NCBI RefSeq assembly: GCF_003334315.1
Contig: NZ_QOWR01000059.1
Strand: one strand, 5' to 3'
DNA length: 28,938 bases
From: Escherichia coli
GTDB taxonomy: Bacteria > Pseudomonadota > Gammaproteobacteria > Enterobacterales > Enterobacteriaceae
Below the pieces are notes generated by a model. That model had not been told where the DNA came from. It did not search any database and was given only the letters and a program-made list of their open reading frames with translations. Of this stretch, positions 2,490-24,607 are shown in pieces (position 1 is the first letter of the stretch; the number at the start of each line of letters is the position of its first letter). A program made the translations under genes and the position numbers.

Positions 2490-3875
2490 TTACTTACGAC
2501 GCCAGGTGGTCCCTTGCGGGCCATCTTCCAGCACGATCCCCATCTCGTTAAGACGATCACGCGCCGCATCCGCCGCCGCCCAGTCTTTCGCTTTACGGGC
2601 ATCCAGACGCTGTTGAATTAACGCTTCAATCTCAGCCACTTCGCTGTCGTCTGCCTGCGCGCCGCTTTGCAGGAACGCTTCCGGTTCTTGCTCCAGCAGG
2701 CCCAATACAGCGGAAAGTTTACGCAGGTGAGATGCCATTGCATTCGCCGCTGCCATATCTTCTGCTTTCAGACGGTTTACTTCACGCGCCATATCAAACA
2801 GTACGGAATAGGCTTCCGGGGTGTTGAAATCGTCGTCCATCGCTTCAATAAAGCGCGCTTCAAACGCTTCGCCACCGGCAGGCGCAACGGTTTTATCTGT
2901 GCCGCGCAGCGCAGTGTAGAGACGCTCCAGCGCCGCACGCGCCTGCTTCAGGTTCTCTTCGCTGTAGTTCAACTGGCTGCGATAGTGGCCCGACATCAGG
3001 AAGTAACGCACGGTTTCCGCGTCGTAGTATTTCAGCACATCGCGCACGGTAAAGAAGTTACCCAGCGATTTGGACATCTTCTCGCGGTCAACCATCACCA
3101 TCCCCGAGTGCATCCAGTAGTTCACATACTGACCATCATGGGCACAGGTGGACTGCGCGATTTCGTTTTCGTGGTGCGGGAACATCAGGTCTGAACCGCC
3201 GCCGTGGATATCAAAGTGGTTACCCAGCTGCTTGCAGTTCATTGCCGAACATTCAATGTGCCAGCCAGGACGACCCGCGCCCCACGGAGACGGCCAGCTC
3301 GGTTCGCCCTCTTTCGACATCTTCCACAGAACGAAGTCCATTGGGTTGCGTTTGTCGTCGACCACGTCAACGCGCGCGCCTGCCTGCAGCTGGTCGAGAT
3401 CCTGACGCGACAGCACGCCATAAGTTGGATCGGTCGGGACGTCGAACATCACGTCGCCGTTGTCCGCCACATAAGCGTGACCTTTGGCGATCAGTTGTTC
3501 AGTGAGTTCAATAATTTCTGCGATATGGTGCGTCGCGCGCGGCTCCATATCCGGGCGCAGAATGTTCAACGCATCAAAATCTTTGTGCATTTCGGCGATC
3601 ATGCGATCCACCAGCGCCACAAAGCTTTCGCCATTTTCATTGGCGCGTTTGATGATTTTGTCGTCGATATCGGTAATGTTGCGCACATACTTCAGCTTAT
3701 AGCCGAGGAAACGCAGATAGCGCGCAACCACGTCAAAAGCAACAAAGGTACGCCCGTGACCGATATGACAGAGATCGTAAACGGTGATTCCACACACGTA
3801 CATGCCGACTTCCCCGGCGTGAATAGGCTTAAATTCCTCTTTTTGGCGTGTCAGAGTATTGAAGATTTTTAGCAT
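2490..3875 (-). CDS. cysS: Cysteinyl-tRNA synthetase
   Basis: 461-aa [46 protein letters not shown]... with class-I aaRS HIGH motif and KMSKS (EKMSKSLGN). Confidence 0.97.
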
Positions 3876-4048
3876 CGAAGATTCCGTTTAGACATGTGTG
3901 GGTAATTGAGTTGCGTATAATACCCATATTTCCCGCGCGAATCAGCATACATTGCGTGATGATCCGATCGTGCGGTTATGCTATAACACCACCCTATATA
4001 TGACCCGAACTGGGTTGAAGCACCAATCAAACGGAACAGGATGCAAAA

Positions 4049-4543
4049 ATGGTTACTTTCCACACCAATCACGGCGATATTGTCATCAAAACTTTTGACG
4101 ATAAAGCACCTGAAACAGTTAAAAACTTCCTGGACTACTGCCGCGAAGGTTTTTACAACAACACCATTTTCCACCGTGTTATCAACGGCTTTATGATTCA
4201 GGGCGGCGGTTTTGAACCGGGCATGAAACAAAAAGCCACCAAAGAACCGATCAAAAACGAAGCCAACAACGGCCTGAAAAATACCCGTGGTACGCTGGCA
4301 ATGGCACGTACTCAGGCTCCGCACTCTGCAACTGCACAGTTCTTCATCAACGTGGTTGATAACGACTTCCTGAACTTCTCTGGCGAAAGCCTGCAAGGTT
4401 GGGGCTACTGCGTGTTTGCTGAAGTGGTTGACGGCATGGACGTGGTAGACAAAATCAAAGGTGTTGCAACCGGTCGTAGCGGTATGCACCAGGACGTGCC
4501 AAAAGAAGACGTTATCATTGAAAGCGTGACCGTTAGCGAGTAA
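4049..4543 (+). CDS. ppiB: Peptidyl-prolyl cis-trans isomerase B (cyclophilin)
   Basis: 164-aa [61 protein letters not shown]..., cyclophilin fold signature. Confidence 0.96.
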
Positions 4544-4545
4544 TC

Positions 4546-5268
4546 GTGGCGACACTCTTTATTGCAGATCTTCATCTCTGCGTGGAAGAACCGGCGATCA
4601 CCGCCGGTTTTCTGCGTTTTTTAGCGGGGGAAGCCCGCAAGGCCGACGCGCTGTATATTCTTGGCGATCTGTTTGAAGCATGGATTGGCGACGACGATCC
4701 CAACCCACTCCATCGCCAGATGGCGGCAGCGATCAAAGCGGTGTCCGATTCCGGCGTTCCCTGTTATTTCATTCATGGCAACCGTGATTTTCTGCTCGGC
4801 AAACGCTTTGCCCGTGAAAGCGGCATGACATTATTGCCGGAAGAAAAGGTGCTCGAACTTTATGGTCGCCGGGTGTTGATTATGCATGGCGACACGCTGT
4901 GCACCGATGACGCGGGTTATCAGGCTTTTCGCGCCAAAGTCCACAAACCCTGGCTGCAAACGCTATTCCTCGCCCTGCCGTTGTTTGTGCGCAAACGCAT
5001 TGCCGCGCGAATGCGAGCGAACAGTAAAGAAGCCAACAGCAGTAAATCGCTGGCGATCATGGACGTTAACCAAAACGCGGTAGTCAGTGCGATGGAAAAA
5101 CATCAGGTGCAATGGCTGATCCACGGGCATACCCATCGCCCGGCGGTACATGAACTTATCGCCAACCAGCAACCTGCTTTTCGCGTGGTACTCGGTGCCT
5201 GGCATACAGAAGGTTCGATGGTGAAAGTCACGGCGGATGACGTTGAGCTGATTCATTTTCCGTTTTAA
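4546..5268 (+). CDS. lpxH: UDP-2,3-diacylglucosamine pyrophosphohydrolase (lipid A biosynthesis)
   Basis: 240-aa [29 protein letters not shown]... calcineurin-like phosphoesterase motifs (DLH, GNRD, GHTH); GTG start 2 nt after ppiB stop. Confidence 0.94.
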
Positions 5269-15225: not shown

Positions 15226-15267
15226 GTCATACCACTCGCCTGATTATTTTTAGCTATGTTGGATTTT

Positions 15268-15294
15268 GCCACGGTTTATACCGTGGCTTTTTTT
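15268..15294 (+). terminator. Rho-independent terminator of allD-allC-allE operon
   Basis: GCCACGG-TTTATA-CCGTGGC followed by TTTTTTT. Confidence 0.75.
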
Positions 15295-15302
15295 GTAACA
15301 TT

Positions 15303-15406
15303 GCCTGATGCGCTTCGCTTATCAGGCCTACATGATCTCTGCAATATATAGAATTTGCGCGATTTTCAGGAAGGATATGGTACTCATGCCGCATCCGGCA
15401 TGAGTA
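15303..15406. repeat. REP-like palindromic elements between convergent allE and glxK
   Basis: GCCTGATGCGCTTCGCTTATCAGGCCTACA (REP-type) at 15303..15332 and palindrome TACTCATGCC-GCATCC-GGCATGAGTA at 15381..15406. Confidence 0.6.
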
Positions 15407-15452: not shown

Positions 15453-16598
15453 TTAGTTTTTAATTCCCTGACCTATTTTAATGGCGCAGGCAATATTTCG
15501 CGCGCTGTTGAAGAGATTGGTTTCACCGCTGGCGAGCACTTCGGCTAAAGGTGCCAGACGAGGCAAAATGCTGAATACCGCGTCAATGCCGTACTGGTGC
15601 ACCACTTCCACGCCATCACCCAATACGCCAGCAATCCCAATCACCGGTACATTAAACTGCTTCGCCACCGACGCCACACCCAGCGGCGCTTTACCGCCTG
15701 CCGTTTGCGAGTCGATGCGCCCTTCCCCGGTAATCACCAGTGCTGCGCCCTGCACTGCCTGCGCAAGATTGACCGCATTCAACACAATTTCAATGCCCGG
15801 TTTAATATCCGCATTGAGAAATACCGCCGCCGCAATACCCATACCGCCCGCAGCGCCGCCGCCCGCCATCTGGCAGACATTAATTTCAGTTTGCTGTTGT
15901 AAAACACGGGCGTAATTTTGCAGCCCCTGTTCAAGTTCTTCGACCATCTCCGGCGTTGCCCCTTTTTGCGGGCCAAACACCGCCGCCGCGCCGCGTGCCC
16001 CTACCAGCGGGTTATCAACGTCACATGCTACTTCAATATGGCAATTCGCCAGACGCGGATCGCATTCATCCATCTCAATGCTTGCCACGCGCGCTAAATT
16101 ACCACCGTTTGCCGCCAGCGCCTGACCGTCGGCATCAAGGAAACGCACACCGAGCGCCTGCGCCATGCCCATACCGCCGTCGACCGTCGCACTGCCGCCA
16201 ATGCCGAGAATAATATGGCGAATGTCGTTATCCAGCGCATGACGAATTAACTCCCCCGTACCAAAACTGGAGGCCAGCAACGGATTACGCTTTTCAGGCG
16301 CGACCAGCATCAGGCCACTTGCTGCCGCCATCTCAATCACCGCCGTTTTCCCGTCGCCGGTAAGGCCATAAAAAGCATTCACTTTTTCGCCCATCGGCCC
16401 GCAGACTTCAAGCGTCACGATGTTGCCGCCCGTCGCGGCGACCATCGCATCCACCGTCCCTTCGCCGCCATCCGCTATCGGCAAACAGATATAGTTCGCA
16501 TCGGGAAAGAGGGTCGAAAACCCGGCTTTAATTGCCTGACAACATTTTTCTGCACTTAAGCTCTCTTTAAAAGAGTCTGGCGCAATGACAATCTTCAT
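15453..16598 (-). CDS. glxK: Glycerate kinase II
   Basis: [48 protein letters not shown]..., 381 aa from ATG at 16598. Confidence 0.93.
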
Positions 16599-16619
16599 TA
16601 TCAATCCTTTTTCAACAAA

Positions 16620-17927
16620 TTATTCGATGCGTTCCCACGGAATAAGGTTATCCATAAGAACAGCCAGTAAAATCCCGACCAATAAGCCGTTACTGAGCAG
16701 AGGACGAAGCGTTAATGGAAGGTCTTGCAGATACACAGGCGGTAATGCCATTAAAAATATGCCGACAAATAACGGCAATGCGAGTCGATAAATATTGCGA
16801 GCGGTAAACGTTATTTGCTGGCTAAACACCAGCGCGGAAAAGAGTAAAGGCAGATAAGAAACCAGCATGACCGCACTACTCACGGGTAAAGGGATACTGC
16901 AAAACAGTCGCGTGAGTGCAGGAACCAGCGCCACCAGCAGGCAAATAACGCTGCCATAAATAAACGAACGCCGCGTGTAATCGCCAGTCTGGGTTAATAA
17001 ACCAATGGATGAAACAAACGGTGAAAATGGAATTACCGCCAGCGGTACGGTTATCAGCGTCATAAATCCGGTCGCCACAAAGCTACGACGATAACGCGTA
17101 TTCCCTGCGCCCTGCTGCGGATAAAAAACATCCGTGCCCCGAATCGCACCGTAGGTATTGCTGATATTTACCAGACCTGTAATCACCGCCGTCAGAATAA
17201 TTCCCGGCGACAAAGCACCGCCACTGCCGAGCGGGAACCACTGCCAGTGCAACTCACCGGAGAGCGAATGCGAAGAAGGAAAGCAAAAGTACCACAACAA
17301 CCAGCCGGTTATCGTACCGACCAGCAGGCCATAACGGGCAAAACGTTGCGGCAGAAAGATAATCATCGCCAGTACCAGGCACATCACCGCCACCGAGAGC
17401 GCGAACGGTGGTAACTGAATTTTAAAATTTGGGTCGGCTATGCCAAACGGCAGCCCGAGCATACCTTTGAAAAAGATAGTGGTCAGCTGCGCGCCCAGCA
17501 TCAACATAAACAAGACCATCACCGACGGCGTAAATAACCGTGCCAGGCGATGGCCTAATCCGCTAAAACCAATCAACATCGTCAGCACGCCGGAGAGTGC
17601 AATCCCCACCGCCAGACTGGTAGCGATATCGTTGATCGGTGTCCCGCGCGATGCTTCGCCAAGGGTGATAGTAAGGATGGTTCCCCACCACAGGCCACCC
17701 GGCCCTTCCATAATAGCGCGACGATGACCGCAGAACGCCTGAGCGAAGCAGGCCAGTGCGGTAGCAAGAAAAGCATATTGCGTGAGCGTAAGCAGGCTAC
17801 TTTGCGGCAACTGAAAAGCAGAAAGTAGCGTAGGAGGAACCACAACCGTGTTGCAAAAAATAAAGAAAAACCACTGAAATCCTGATAACAGGCTTTCGCG
17901 GCTGACTGCAAAATTGAACATAAACAC
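16620..17927 (-). CDS. ybbY: Putative purine/xanthine permease (NCS2 family)
   Basis: 435-aa polytopic membrane ORF MFMFNFAVSRESLLSGFQWFFFIFCNTVVVPP...; alternative start 2 codons downstream at 17921. Confidence 0.85.
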   Translation of the reverse strand: MFMFNFAVSRESLLSGFQWFFFIFCNTVVVPPTLLSAFQLPQSSLLTLTQYAFLATALACFAQAFCGHRRAIMEGPGGLWWGTILTITLGEASRGTPINDIATSLAVGIALSGVLTMLIGFSGLGHRLARLFTPSVMVLFMLMLGAQLTTIFFKGMLGLPFGIADPNFKIQLPPFALSVAVMCLVLAMIIFLPQRFARYGLLVGTITGWLLWYFCFPSSHSLSGELHWQWFPLGSGGALSPGIILTAVITGLVNISNTYGAIRGTDVFYPQQGAGNTRYRRSFVATGFMTLITVPLAVIPFSPFVSSIGLLTQTGDYTRRSFIYGSVICLLVALVPALTRLFCSIPLPVSSAVMLVSYLPLLFSALVFSQQITFTARNIYRLALPLFVGIFLMALPPVYLQDLPLTLRPLLSNGLLVGILLAVLMDNLIPWERIE

Positions 17928-17977
17928 ACCTTAACCGGAGAATGCCCGCCGCAAGGACGGGCATTGCAGGGGCCAGA

Positions 17978-19339
17978 TTACTGCTGATGTTTAAGGATAA
18001 ATTGACCTTTCGGCGCAACAGGGAAGCCCTGTTCAATGTCGTAAATCACATCACCACGTAAGATGGTTTTCGTGATACGCGCGCCAATGGTACGGCCAAC
18101 ATACGGGCTGACTTTGTGGCGATATTCCAGATCGTCATTGGTAAGAACATAGCTGCTATTCGGCTGAATGAAGACGAAGTCGGCATCTTTTCCTGGGGCG
18201 ATACGGCCTTTTTGCTGCAGACCGAAAATATCTGCTGCGTTAGTCGCCATTAATTTGCCGAACATTGGCAGAGACATACCGCGTTTCTGTACCGCTTCAT
18301 CGAACATCACGTCCATGCAGCTTTGCAGACCGGCGATACCGCCCCATGCTTTCATGATGTTACCGGCTTTCATTTCCGGCGGGCATGGAGAGTGGTCGGA
18401 AACCAGGCAGTCGATTTCACCGTTAAACAGTTTTTCCCACATGCCTTTCTGGTTTTCCAGATCGCGGATCGGCGGTGAACACTTCGCCAGAGTACCGATT
18501 TCTTCGAACTGATCGGTATCCAGTACAAAGTAATGCGGGCAGGATTCACAAGTAACGTCCTGACCTTCCTGACGTGCACGAGTCACTTCCTCAACACCTT
18601 CCGGGCTGCTGACGTGGCAAACGTGCAGACGGCAACCAGCAACTTTCGCCAGATACAGTACGCGGCGAATTGCTTCCACTTCGGTAAATACCGGACGCGA
18701 AGCCACATAGTCATGAGCGGTTACGCGACCTTCACGCTTCGCTTCTTCGCCCAGTTCGTCACAAATCAGCGCGTTTTCGCAGTGCACCAGCACCGGCTGA
18801 CCCAGTTCGCCCAGCTTCTGCGCACCTTTGAAGAACTGCCAGTCGTTTACATCACGGAAGTCGTTGTCGATACCGCGATCGCCACAGGTCGCAACGAAGC
18901 ATTTGAAGCCGACAACGCCCACTTCATCCAGCTCATGCAGACGGTCGATGTTGTAAGACACCAGGCCACCGAGTTGTGCCGCATCAATAGTCAGCTTGCC
19001 TTTAGCGGCATCGAACTTCAGTTCAATTGAAGCGCGGTCAACCGTTGCAGGCAGCTGGTTGAGCGGCATTTCGATCATGGTGGTGATACCACCTTTTGCC
19101 GCTGCGCGAGTACCGGTTTCATAACCTTCCCAGTGGCTACGACCCGGTTCAGAAATATGGGTGTGCGCATCAACCATGCCCGGCGAAACCACCAGACCAG
19201 ACGCATCCATAACTTCTTTTGCATCGCCCAGATCCTGACCGATAGCAGCAATTTTTCCGCCTTTAACGGCGATATCTACAACGCGAGCTTCGTTTTCTAA
19301 AATAACGGTGCCGTTTTTAATGATTAAATCAAAAGACAT
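17978..19339 (-). CDS. allB: Allantoinase (cyclic amidohydrolase)
   Basis: 453-aa [80 protein letters not shown]... with metal-binding HxH motif. Confidence 0.95.
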
Positions 19340-19398: not shown

Positions 19399-20853
19399 TT
19401 AACCTATGGTTTTTTGCTCTCCTGTTTTTTCTGCTGTTGTACGTTTCTTTAATAAGGCGTAGGCCGCAAAGGCGACGATGACGCCGACAAACCATGAAAC
19501 ACGCGATAACGGTTCCATAAAGTGAATAAACTTACCGCCAAGAGATAAAATAACGGCCACCAGAGTTACTGAAAACGCAGTGAGGTTAAAACCGTTATCG
19601 TAATATTTATAATCGCCAGGTGCGGTATACAGTTCATCAAGATTAATTTGTCCGCGCATCACCACAAAATAATGCGCCATCATGACACCAATTACCGGAC
19701 CAAGCATTCCGCCGATAATATCGAGGAAAAGATAAATGCTGTCCTGATTTTCCATTAATTTTCACGGGCAGATCAGCAAGCTGATAATACTGGCAATCAG
19801 TACGCCGTTTTTATAGGTCAGTTTTGTCGGTGCAATGGCGGCAATCTGATAACCGGCTGGAATAATATTACCGGTCGCGTTAGTGGAGATAGTTGTCATC
19901 AGAATAACCAGTACCGCAAAGAACGAGGCGAACAGGCTGTCCCAACGCTGAACAATATCCAGCACGTTCCAGGTATCAGCGCCGTAGTGAATACTGGCTC
20001 CGGCAATAATACATACCCCGGCGACCGCAAACAGAATATAGGCCACAACTAAACCCAGCGTTTGCCCCAGCGCCTGCTCACGAAACGAGTGGGCGTTTTG
20101 CGTAAAGTCGGATGCGCTCACCGCCGGTGCCGCCCAGACCGCAACTACCGCGTTAATCACCACCAGGAACAGGAAGCCACCGTTTTCTGCTTTCTGAATA
20201 CCGCTCGGAATGTAGTCAAAGATTGGACCGATCCCGATCAGTGAAATCGCCCAAATCGCCATACCGCCGAAAACGATATAGATGCACGGGTTAAGAATGG
20301 CAGTGAATTTATTTAAAACTTTGCCACCGCCAAAACCTATACCAACGTTGACCAGCCAGAAGATTAAGAAAGTAATTAAGCCCGGTAGAGAAAGGCCTAA
20401 CAGAGTGAAATCACCACCGAGAGTTAAAAATCCCGGCCAGATTTTGCCAATCAGAATCAAGCAGGCCAGTGACCCCGCGTAACATTGCAAACCAAACCAC
20501 ATGATGGCGGCAATTCCGCCCCTTAATAATCCGGGAAACAGTGCACCACGTACACCGTAAGAAGCACGCAGGATCATGGCAAAAGGCACACCGTATTTAC
20601 TGCCCGCAGCACCGTTTAATACCATTACCGCGGCAATGAAAAAGGCGCTGAGGATAATTGCCAGCATAATACTAAAGGTAGACAAGCCGAGAATAAAAAA
20701 GCCGCCGACCATCACATAATTGGGAACGTTATGAACCGAACCCATCCATAAGGTAAAATAGTTAAATGTTTTCCAGGTCCGCTGGCTTTGCGTTTTCGGC
20801 AATAGATCTTCGCTATAGCCGCGTTGCTGGAATAGTTTTCTCTGATGTTCCAT
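19399..20853 (-). pseudogene. ybbW: Allantoin permease (NCS1 family) interrupted by an in-frame TGA at codon 364
   Basis: ORFs 19762..20853 (363 aa ...LLICP) and 19399..19755 (118 aa MENQDS...) share a frame. Minus strand reads ...TGA-AAA-TTA-ATG-GAA, so 363 + stop + 2 + 118 = 484 codons, the length I recall for K-12 YbbW/AllP. Confidence 0.75.
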
Positions 20854-20990
20854 AAATCCCTCTTAATTTCACGTATCGAATAACGTTGTTTTAATCTAGC
20901 TATGAGGAACAAATAAAATAAAAATATTATTTTTAATACTGAAGCAACATCTTTGGCTGCTTTCTTTTTTAATATTGCTGGCCGATTCAT
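20712..20990 (-). CDS. ybbV: Hypothetical small protein YbbV (doubtful ORF overlapping ybbW 5' end)
   Basis: 92-aa ORF MNRPAILKKKAAKDVASVLKIIFLFYLFLIARLKQ... in the position of annotated K-12 ybbV; AT-rich, overlaps ybbW by about 140 nt. Confidence 0.3.
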   Translation of the reverse strand: MNRPAILKKKAAKDVASVLKIIFLFYLFLIARLKQRYSIREIKRDLWNIRENYSSNAAIAKIYCRKRKASGPGKHLTILPYGWVRFITFPIM

Positions 20991-21021
20991 TTTCTGATAT
21001 CGGCCATTTTTATTGCGGGTA

Positions 21022-24590: not shown

Positions 24591-24607
24591 TTGGAAAATT
24601 TTTCCAA
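24591..24607. promoter_or_regulatory. AllR operator in the gcl promoter
   Basis: Palindrome TTGGAAAATTTTTCCAA about 20 nt upstream of the gcl start; matches the AllR box as I recall it. Confidence 0.7.

Follow-up and report, generated by a model that had tools for sequence, protein, structure and literature searches.

The window analysed here, a 28.9-kb stretch of DNA (28,938 nt in full), is an Escherichia coli K-12-like chromosome segment that carries the allantoin/glyoxylate cluster on its minus strand. The RefSeq annotation gives the gene order as gcl-hyi-glxR-allW-allB-ybbY-glxK, and gcl-glxK is treated as a single operon (PMC10163214). Within this cluster, allB, which encodes allantoinase, occupies 17978..19339 on the minus strand and ends in a TAA stop codon at 17978-17980, as read from the list of open reading frames and from the RefSeq annotation of identical sequence. 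It is followed by ybbY (16620..17921, minus strand, ATG at 17921-17919), encoding an NCS2-family permease of the uracil/xanthine type, and then by glxK (15453-16604, minus strand), both placed by the same two sources. A first-pass annotation of this DNA had begun ybbY at a GTG at 17927, leaving a gap of 50 nt; the start annotated in RefSeq and conserved in a multi-species alignment is the ATG at 17921, and the gap between allB and ybbY measures 56 nt. Over the 351 bases around the hairpin that occupies this gap, many RefSeq E. coli chromosomes match the window at 100% identity.

A hairpin between allB and ybbY in E. coli

The first-pass annotation had pointed to 7-bp arms, ATGCCCG and CGGGCAT, separated by 9 nt at 17942-17964, and a check of the sequence found them exactly there. 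A palindrome scan of the window extended the perfect stem to eight pairs (17941-17965). Folded as sense (minus-strand) RNA, 17941-17965 reads AAUGCCCGUC-CUUGC-GGCGGGCAUU and forms a hairpin of 10 bp (8 Watson-Crick pairs plus U·G and C-G) with a 5-nt loop and a dG of about -15.4 kcal/mol, which is retained in both the MFE and the centroid folds of 71-nt and 201-nt contexts. The 5' arm lies at 17956..17965 and the 3' arm at 17941..17950 (minus strand; sequence, folding and covariation), and the loop at 17951..17955 (minus strand; folding and comparison of E. coli alleles). With five G-C pairs among the eight perfect ones, the hairpin has the form of the GC-rich stem-loop that intrinsic terminators show in the sense RNA (about 5-14 bp with a loop of 3-8 nt), and it is placed as such terminators are, past a stop codon and in the orientation of the gene. 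Equally, it is a stable stem-loop at the 3' end of an upstream cistron, the structure expected of a stabilising hairpin.

The hairpin begins 12 nt past the allB stop codon. The intervening spacer, UCUGGCCCCUGC (17966..17977, minus strand), is conserved in length, usually 9-14 nt among the roughly 20 orthologous loci in which distances were taken, and not in sequence. On its other side the hairpin is followed by a degenerate U-tract, CUCCGGUUAA (17931..17940, minus strand), delimited by alignment A2 and by tail scores, and by the ybbY Shine-Dalgarno region UAAGGUG (17927..17933, minus strand), which coincides with a conserved AAGG/GAGG column in A2. The hairpin ends 19 nt ahead of the ybbY AUG, and its 3' edge lies 7 nt upstream of the Shine-Dalgarno region, with no pairing between the two.

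Evidence for this structure from E. coli alone is weak. Perfect hairpins with a stem of 8 bp or more and a loop of 3-12 nt number 10 in the window, against about 4.4 expected by simple arithmetic, so that an 8-bp palindrome is not rare by itself. The best hairpin in the E. coli gap is mildly unusual (z = -2.3, with 2 of 60 dinucleotide shuffles as good), and the 71-nt region as a whole shows no significant structure when folded in the sense direction (z = -1.14).

Of 5426 complete E. coli genomes, 5339 contain the 48-nt gap sequence, each in one copy and with nothing annotated beneath it. A sensitive blastn search of those 5339 genomes placed it at a median of one site per genome, where a REP or BIME would have many copies, and the window holds no second copy of the hairpin with up to 3 mismatches allowed; identity as a dispersed or REP repeat was rejected on this single copy number. 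The allele of the window is carried by 4227 genomes and a variant differing in one loop base (C/U) by 1103, together 5330 of the 5339, and this C/U change at loop position 17951 is the sole common E. coli polymorphism in the hairpin. In the divergent lineage E69, the U·G pair is replaced by C-G. One genome of the 5339, GPEC1446, has the 9 nt between the perfect arms inverted, reading CCGCAAGGA in place of TCCTTGCGG in the sense direction, with the arms intact (L045 1517-1525, corresponding to window 17949-17957). This is the pattern that an inversion or a template switch at a quasi-palindrome leaves behind, unless the assembly is at fault.

Several other features of the window lie near this gap. 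In allW (ybbW, allantoin transporter; 19399-20853, minus strand), an in-frame TGA at 19762-19764 stands where other E. coli have TGG (W364*), which breaks the gene up into two ORFs, of 363 aa and 118 aa. The 61-mer around this TGA has no exact match among complete E. coli genomes, the best match among 1920 genomes having 1 mismatch. W364* is a sequencing error, or else a private nonsense allele that could exert polarity on allB-ybbY-glxK. The glxR-allW gap holds a second intercistronic hairpin (20979-21006; 8 bp, 12-nt loop) about 15 nt past the glxR stop, which lacks a U-tract on the sense strand but shows a run of T on the antisense side; at the same place, a hairpin of different sequence occurs in other genera. 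Downstream of it, the motif TTGTTCC(T/G)CATAGCT (20898-20912, minus strand) is conserved upstream of allW in several genera and may represent an operator or a promoter within the operon. Among the REP-like palindromes downstream of glxK, two Rfam families match above their gathering scores, STnc480 (87.6 bits; 15232-15298, minus strand) and ES036/CssrF (38.1 bits; 15324-15366, minus strand); in Klebsiella and Raoultella, too, STnc480 comes after glxK. Since its T-run is on the plus strand, the hairpin at 15268-15287 looks like a terminator of allE rather than of glxK. Finally, the palindrome TTGGAAAATTTTTCCAA at 24591-24607 resembles the AllR operator consensus.

Conservation, covariation and strand across Enterobacterales

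We gathered orthologous loci by querying one genome per species with AllB and by tracing YbbY homologues to their contigs, for a total of about 30 loci. A hairpin was found in every allB-ybbY locus examined (about 25, all in Enterobacterales), usually 9-14 nt past the allB stop. These loci come from Escherichia, Salmonella, Citrobacter, Enterobacter, Superficieibacter, Buttiauxella, Atlantibacter, Klebsiella/Raoultella, Serratia, Rahnella, Yersinia, Providencia and Budvicia, and their hairpins are built from at least 10 unrelated stem sequences. The AUGCCCG stem is shared by Escherichia, Salmonella, Citrobacter, Superficieibacter and Enterobacter; other loci have AUGCCCA/UGGGCAU, GCGCCCG, GCUGCGCUCG (Buttiauxella), GCUGUGCUCA (Atlantibacter), UCGCGUUCA and GCGCUCG (Serratia), CCCGCUG (Rahnella), AAUCGCCCC (Yersinia), ACAGCACAC (Providencia), CCUGCCCGC (Budvicia) or AGCGCCUG (Klebsiella/Raoultella).

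In 17 of the 20 orthologous loci with a short gap, none of 60 shuffles matched the energy of the native hairpin. Within the clade that could be aligned (12 taxa), 91% of cells were paired, compared to 36-42% when the partners were slid; 7 of the 12 pairs showed compensatory double changes, and the covariation score was reached by none of 500 shuffles. RNAalifold consensus folds of 11-12 taxa, which included 18 nt of the allB 3' end, returned the same helix alone and nothing else, and the spacer was not conserved. These folds thus contain a single hairpin, without the conserved competing structure that an attenuator or riboswitch would have. The covariation counts leave out alignment A3 as well as the distant genera recovered with a covariance model of the close clade, which found them at the right position but with E-values of 1-8. 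Across species, the occurrence of the hairpin is far beyond chance, and it is the comparative data, not E. coli alone, that decide that it is genuine. The notion in the first-pass annotation of a real RNA structure between allB and ybbY is thus borne out by covariation and conservation, as a selected structure of the sense strand.

The strand on which this selection acts is indicated by G·U pairs, of which the 25 orthologous hairpins contain 26 when folded in the sense direction and 0 when folded in the antisense direction. The sense fold was also the more stable one in 18 of the 25; for both comparisons, hairpin boundaries had been picked on the sense fold. G·U pairs confined to the sense strand point to the sense RNA, not a DNA palindrome, as the target of selection, and a DNA palindrome or an antisense function was rejected by this asymmetry.

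We also asked with which of its two neighbours the hairpin travels. UBA3516, which has no ybbY and in which glxK comes directly after allB, retains the hairpin. Conversely, no such hairpin was found just upstream of ybbY homologues that do not adjoin allB (L036, L037 and L040-L042), which come from Escherichia sp. E4385, Kluyvera, Erwinia, Providencia huaxiensis and Morganella. On this distribution, the hairpin belongs to the 3' end of allB and not to ybbY.

A number of rearrangements were encountered at these loci. In Escherichia sp. E4385, ybbY (87% identical) directly follows split hyi fragments, with purK next on the other strand; glxR-allW-allB and glxK are deleted, and the hairpin is gone along with allB. 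Three E. coli entries (P0009, P0063 and P0066; 573-758 aa) are annotated as single proteins with both an amidohydrolase (AllB) and a Xan_ur_permease (YbbY) domain, which implies deletions or frameshifts joining allB and ybbY across the gap. In E. coli ECONIH1, ISEcp1 with blaCTX-M-15 has inserted a little past the hairpin, about 35 nt inside ybbY (L004 ~2745-5245). In Superficieibacter sp. 1612_C1 (L023 4357-4560), the hairpin is present twice in the gap, in nearly identical form, on either side of an insert of about 110 bp, and the covariance model detects each copy. The insert matches no Rfam family; it is possibly a small mobile element by which the terminator hairpin is targeted or duplicated. 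Klebsiella and Raoultella loci (L014, L016, L017, L028, L030 and L038) have about 120-150 bp of palindromic repeats, either REP-like (of the GCCGGATAAGGCG type) or of the GGGAGAGGG/CCCTCTCCC type, between the allB stop and the hairpin, and there the terminator-like hairpin AGCGCCUG...CAGGCGCU UUUUC sits just upstream of ybbY. Four contigs (L013, L030, L032 and L033), labelled as Chryseobacterium sp. 18061, a Sporobacter termitidis MAG, Streptomyces cahuitamycinicus and Corynebacterium striatum, carry an enterobacterial allB at 91-100% identity, one of them (L032) with a gap identical to that of Salmonella; contamination or mis-binning is the likely cause.

Terminator character and competing readings

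The first-pass annotation had described the hairpin as lacking a U-tract. This holds in part: the tail in E. coli is CUCCGGUU, or AUUCUCCGG with the basal A-U pairs open, and counting these pairs as tail gives AUUCUCCGGUU, with 3 U in the first 8 nt, a U-tract that is degraded rather than absent. The view of a hairpin other than a terminator is not supported by the orthologues. In Enterobacter, the identical stem (AAUGCCCGUC/GACGGGCAUU) is followed by UUUUUUU, and in the Citrobacter-like 18061/18056, Buttiauxella and Rahnella by 6-7 U (5-7 consecutive U over all four groups), so that hairpins at the same position and in the same orientation after allB have in these genera the U-tract of about 7-9 nt 3' of the stem that marks canonical intrinsic terminators. 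The tail of Salmonella and C. werkmanii is CUCUAUUUU. E. coli, Salmonella and Enterobacter thus offer one stem with tails of 3, 5 and 7 U, respectively.

We ranked these structures with a d'Aubenton-Carafa-style score computed with modern energy parameters, which serves for ranking against calibrators and not for absolute classification. On this heuristic scale the canonical orthologues (Enterobacter, Citrobacter-like 18061/18056, Buttiauxella and Rahnella) reach 43-60, on par with the calibrators trpA, rrnB T1 and lambda tR2 (38-48), and most other orthologues reach 15-30. E. coli, with a tail score of 3.37, obtains a d of 5.9 against the 38-48 of the textbook terminators; among the 24 orthologues with a score, just two rank below it, Serratia H1w (-25.4) and K. 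grimontii (-11.9). By this comparison the element is an intrinsic terminator by descent, of which the Escherichia version has an eroded U-tract. Given that only 3 of 8 tail positions are U, termination in E. coli itself may be negligible.

The reading that we consider probable, if far from certain, is that of an intrinsic terminator within the operon that is prone to read-through and doubles as a 3'-protecting hairpin, that is weakened in E. coli, and that lowers ybbY-glxK relative to allB. RNA polymerase would transcribe the GC-rich stem and its U-containing tail, and some transcripts would end just before the ybbY ribosome-binding site; the remainder would read through and allow ybbY and glxK to be expressed. 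At the 3' end of terminated or trimmed transcripts, the hairpin would also shield the gcl-allB message from 3' exonucleases, and the net outcome would be lower expression of ybbY-glxK than of allB. In Escherichia, where the U-tract has decayed to 3 in 8, termination is predicted to be weak and the stabilising role to be relatively more important. The differential expression proposed in the first-pass annotation is compatible with this placement, which suits a difference between allB with its upstream genes and ybbY-glxK; partial termination is the likelier primary mechanism.

Any such terminator has to be partial. Across loci, the hairpin and the ybbY start are separated by only 12-33 nt, which leaves no room for a promoter, and a promoter scan found no sigma-70-like site in the allB 3' end. 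An internal ybbY promoter was rejected on these two grounds, and transcription of ybbY-glxK must thus cross the hairpin. We counted against a leaky terminator that the literature treats gcl-glxK as one operon (PMC10163214).

Leakiness may also follow from the position of the stem, only 9-14 nt past the stop codon, where a ribosome terminating on allB probably hinders folding and would keep even the strong orthologues leaky. In reporters carrying lambda tR2, termination was about zero a few bp past the stop, variable at distances of 17-18 bp (0.12 versus 0.8) and highest at more than about 30 bp, because the terminating ribosome kept the hairpin from folding (PMC4824070). The conserved spacing would place the allB hairpin in the repressed or variable part of this range, and may thus explain its leakiness. 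The likeness to ribosome-repressed terminators (the lambda tR2 constructs and the pyrBI attenuator cited in PMC4824070) lies in this range of reduced termination; the tR2 work concerned synthetic constructs, a strong terminator and a distance dependence that was sequence-specific.

A competing explanation, compatible with the leaky terminator, is a pure mRNA-stability element without any termination. The hairpin would then stand in the way of 3'-to-5' exonucleases (PNPase, RNase II) that attack ends made by endonucleolytic cleavage or by Rho-dependent termination further downstream, stabilising the gcl-allB segment relative to ybbY-glxK much as the malE-malF REP hairpins do, which is essentially what the first-pass annotation had in mind. 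In E. coli, Serratia H1w, Budvicia and Citrobacter R56, a strong hairpin is kept without a good U-tract, suggesting selection beyond termination, for example for 3'-end protection. Consistent with such a role are also the linkage of the hairpin to the allB 3' end and the acquisition in the Klebsiella/Raoultella gap of REP-like repeats, for which stabilisation of the mRNA upstream of them is documented as a class. However, most orthologues have a U-rich tail right after the stem, several of them a canonical one, and a pure exonuclease barrier needs none. We regard stability without termination as a possible but minority explanation.

More tentatively still, the leaky terminator could be a translation-gated valve across Enterobacterales, in which the ribosome finishing allB decides whether the hairpin folds and ybbY-glxK is transcribed only when allB is actively translated. 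Such a valve might tune the AllB:GlxK ratio, and erosion of the U-tract would have retuned it in Escherichia-like lineages. GlxK allosterically activates AllB, and AllB stabilises AllW (PMC10163214), which would provide a rationale for controlling this ratio. We consider so specific an arrangement rather unlikely.

A direct effect on translation of ybbY, in which the hairpin and its flanks sequester the ybbY Shine-Dalgarno sequence and AUG until ribosomes finishing allB open the structure, is improbable. It draws on the E. coli MFE folds (71 nt and 201 nt), which add outer helices pairing the allB stop region with the Shine-Dalgarno sequence and AUG of ybbY. However, these helices are weak, with whole-region z-scores of only -1.1 and -1.5, and they are missing from the consensus fold of 11 related taxa, in which the central hairpin alone is conserved; a sequestering outer helix was rejected as a conserved feature on this account. 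The central hairpin stops short of UAAGGUG and leaves it unpaired, and UBA3516 keeps the hairpin though it has no ybbY. The role in translation that the first-pass annotation had also entertained thus finds no support.

That the hairpin has no function as RNA, being a chance palindrome, a protein-binding site in DNA or a relic of a REP or MITE, is very improbable: the marginal advantage over shuffles in E. coli, the frequency of 8-bp palindromes in the window and the use of the site as an insertion hot spot in Klebsiella and Superficieibacter would fit, but the position is conserved with unrelated stems and compensatory changes, the sense-only G·U pairs argue against a DNA site, and the element is single-copy in each genome with no Rfam or REP match.

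Related elements and implications for the gcl operon

Searches of Rfam at the allB hairpin returned no match at the gathering threshold or at a permissive E-value, the best sub-threshold hit scoring 15 bits against cut-offs of 35-43. We found no description of an allB-ybbY hairpin in the literature, full-text searches for allB or ybbY with "terminator" gave nothing, and the Term-seq supplements of PMC7815308 and PMC12207403 have no entries for allB, ybbY or glxK. This absence from Term-seq data is expected, since the operon is repressed by AllR and silent under standard conditions. The hairpin is thus an unannotated, single-copy and newly described example of a well-known kind of element.

Its closest counterparts are the orthologues in Enterobacter, the Citrobacter-like 18061/18056, Buttiauxella and Rahnella, which share its position and orientation and, in Enterobacter, its stem, and which differ from it in their runs of U and in their scores, 43-60 against 5.9 in E. 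coli. Partial intrinsic terminators are also found within other E. coli operons, as T1 between rpsU and dnaG (rpsU-dnaG-rpoD) and as the attenuator between rplL and rpoB. These are likewise GC-rich intercistronic hairpins of the sense strand that distal genes need read-through to pass, producing a step-down within the operon. Their 3' ends have been mapped and their efficiencies measured, whereas the allB hairpin is known from sequence; by comparison, its E. coli version has an unusually poor U-tract (3/8) and lies 12 nt past a stop codon and 19 nt before a start codon.

Intercistronic hairpins that stabilise mRNA are exemplified by the REP elements between malE and malF. The allB hairpin is likewise a stable stem-loop just past an upstream cistron, where it could halt 3' exonucleases and thereby increase the ratio of upstream to downstream mRNA. 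It differs in being single-copy, in lacking the REP consensus, in its lineage-specific, covarying stems and in the mostly U-rich tails of its orthologues.

If the leaky-terminator reading is true, the gcl operon of E. coli is not uniform and contains a conserved internal step-down after allB, with possibly another after glxR. This would help to explain the levels of the module of allantoin transporter and allantoinase compared to those of the YbbY permease and glycerate kinase. No general concept is changed by the allB hairpin; its use lies in operon annotation and in the natural series of terminators that it offers, the same stem being followed by 7 U down to 3 U. It would represent a well-supported, covarying and leaky terminator within an operon, whose strength has drifted between genera.
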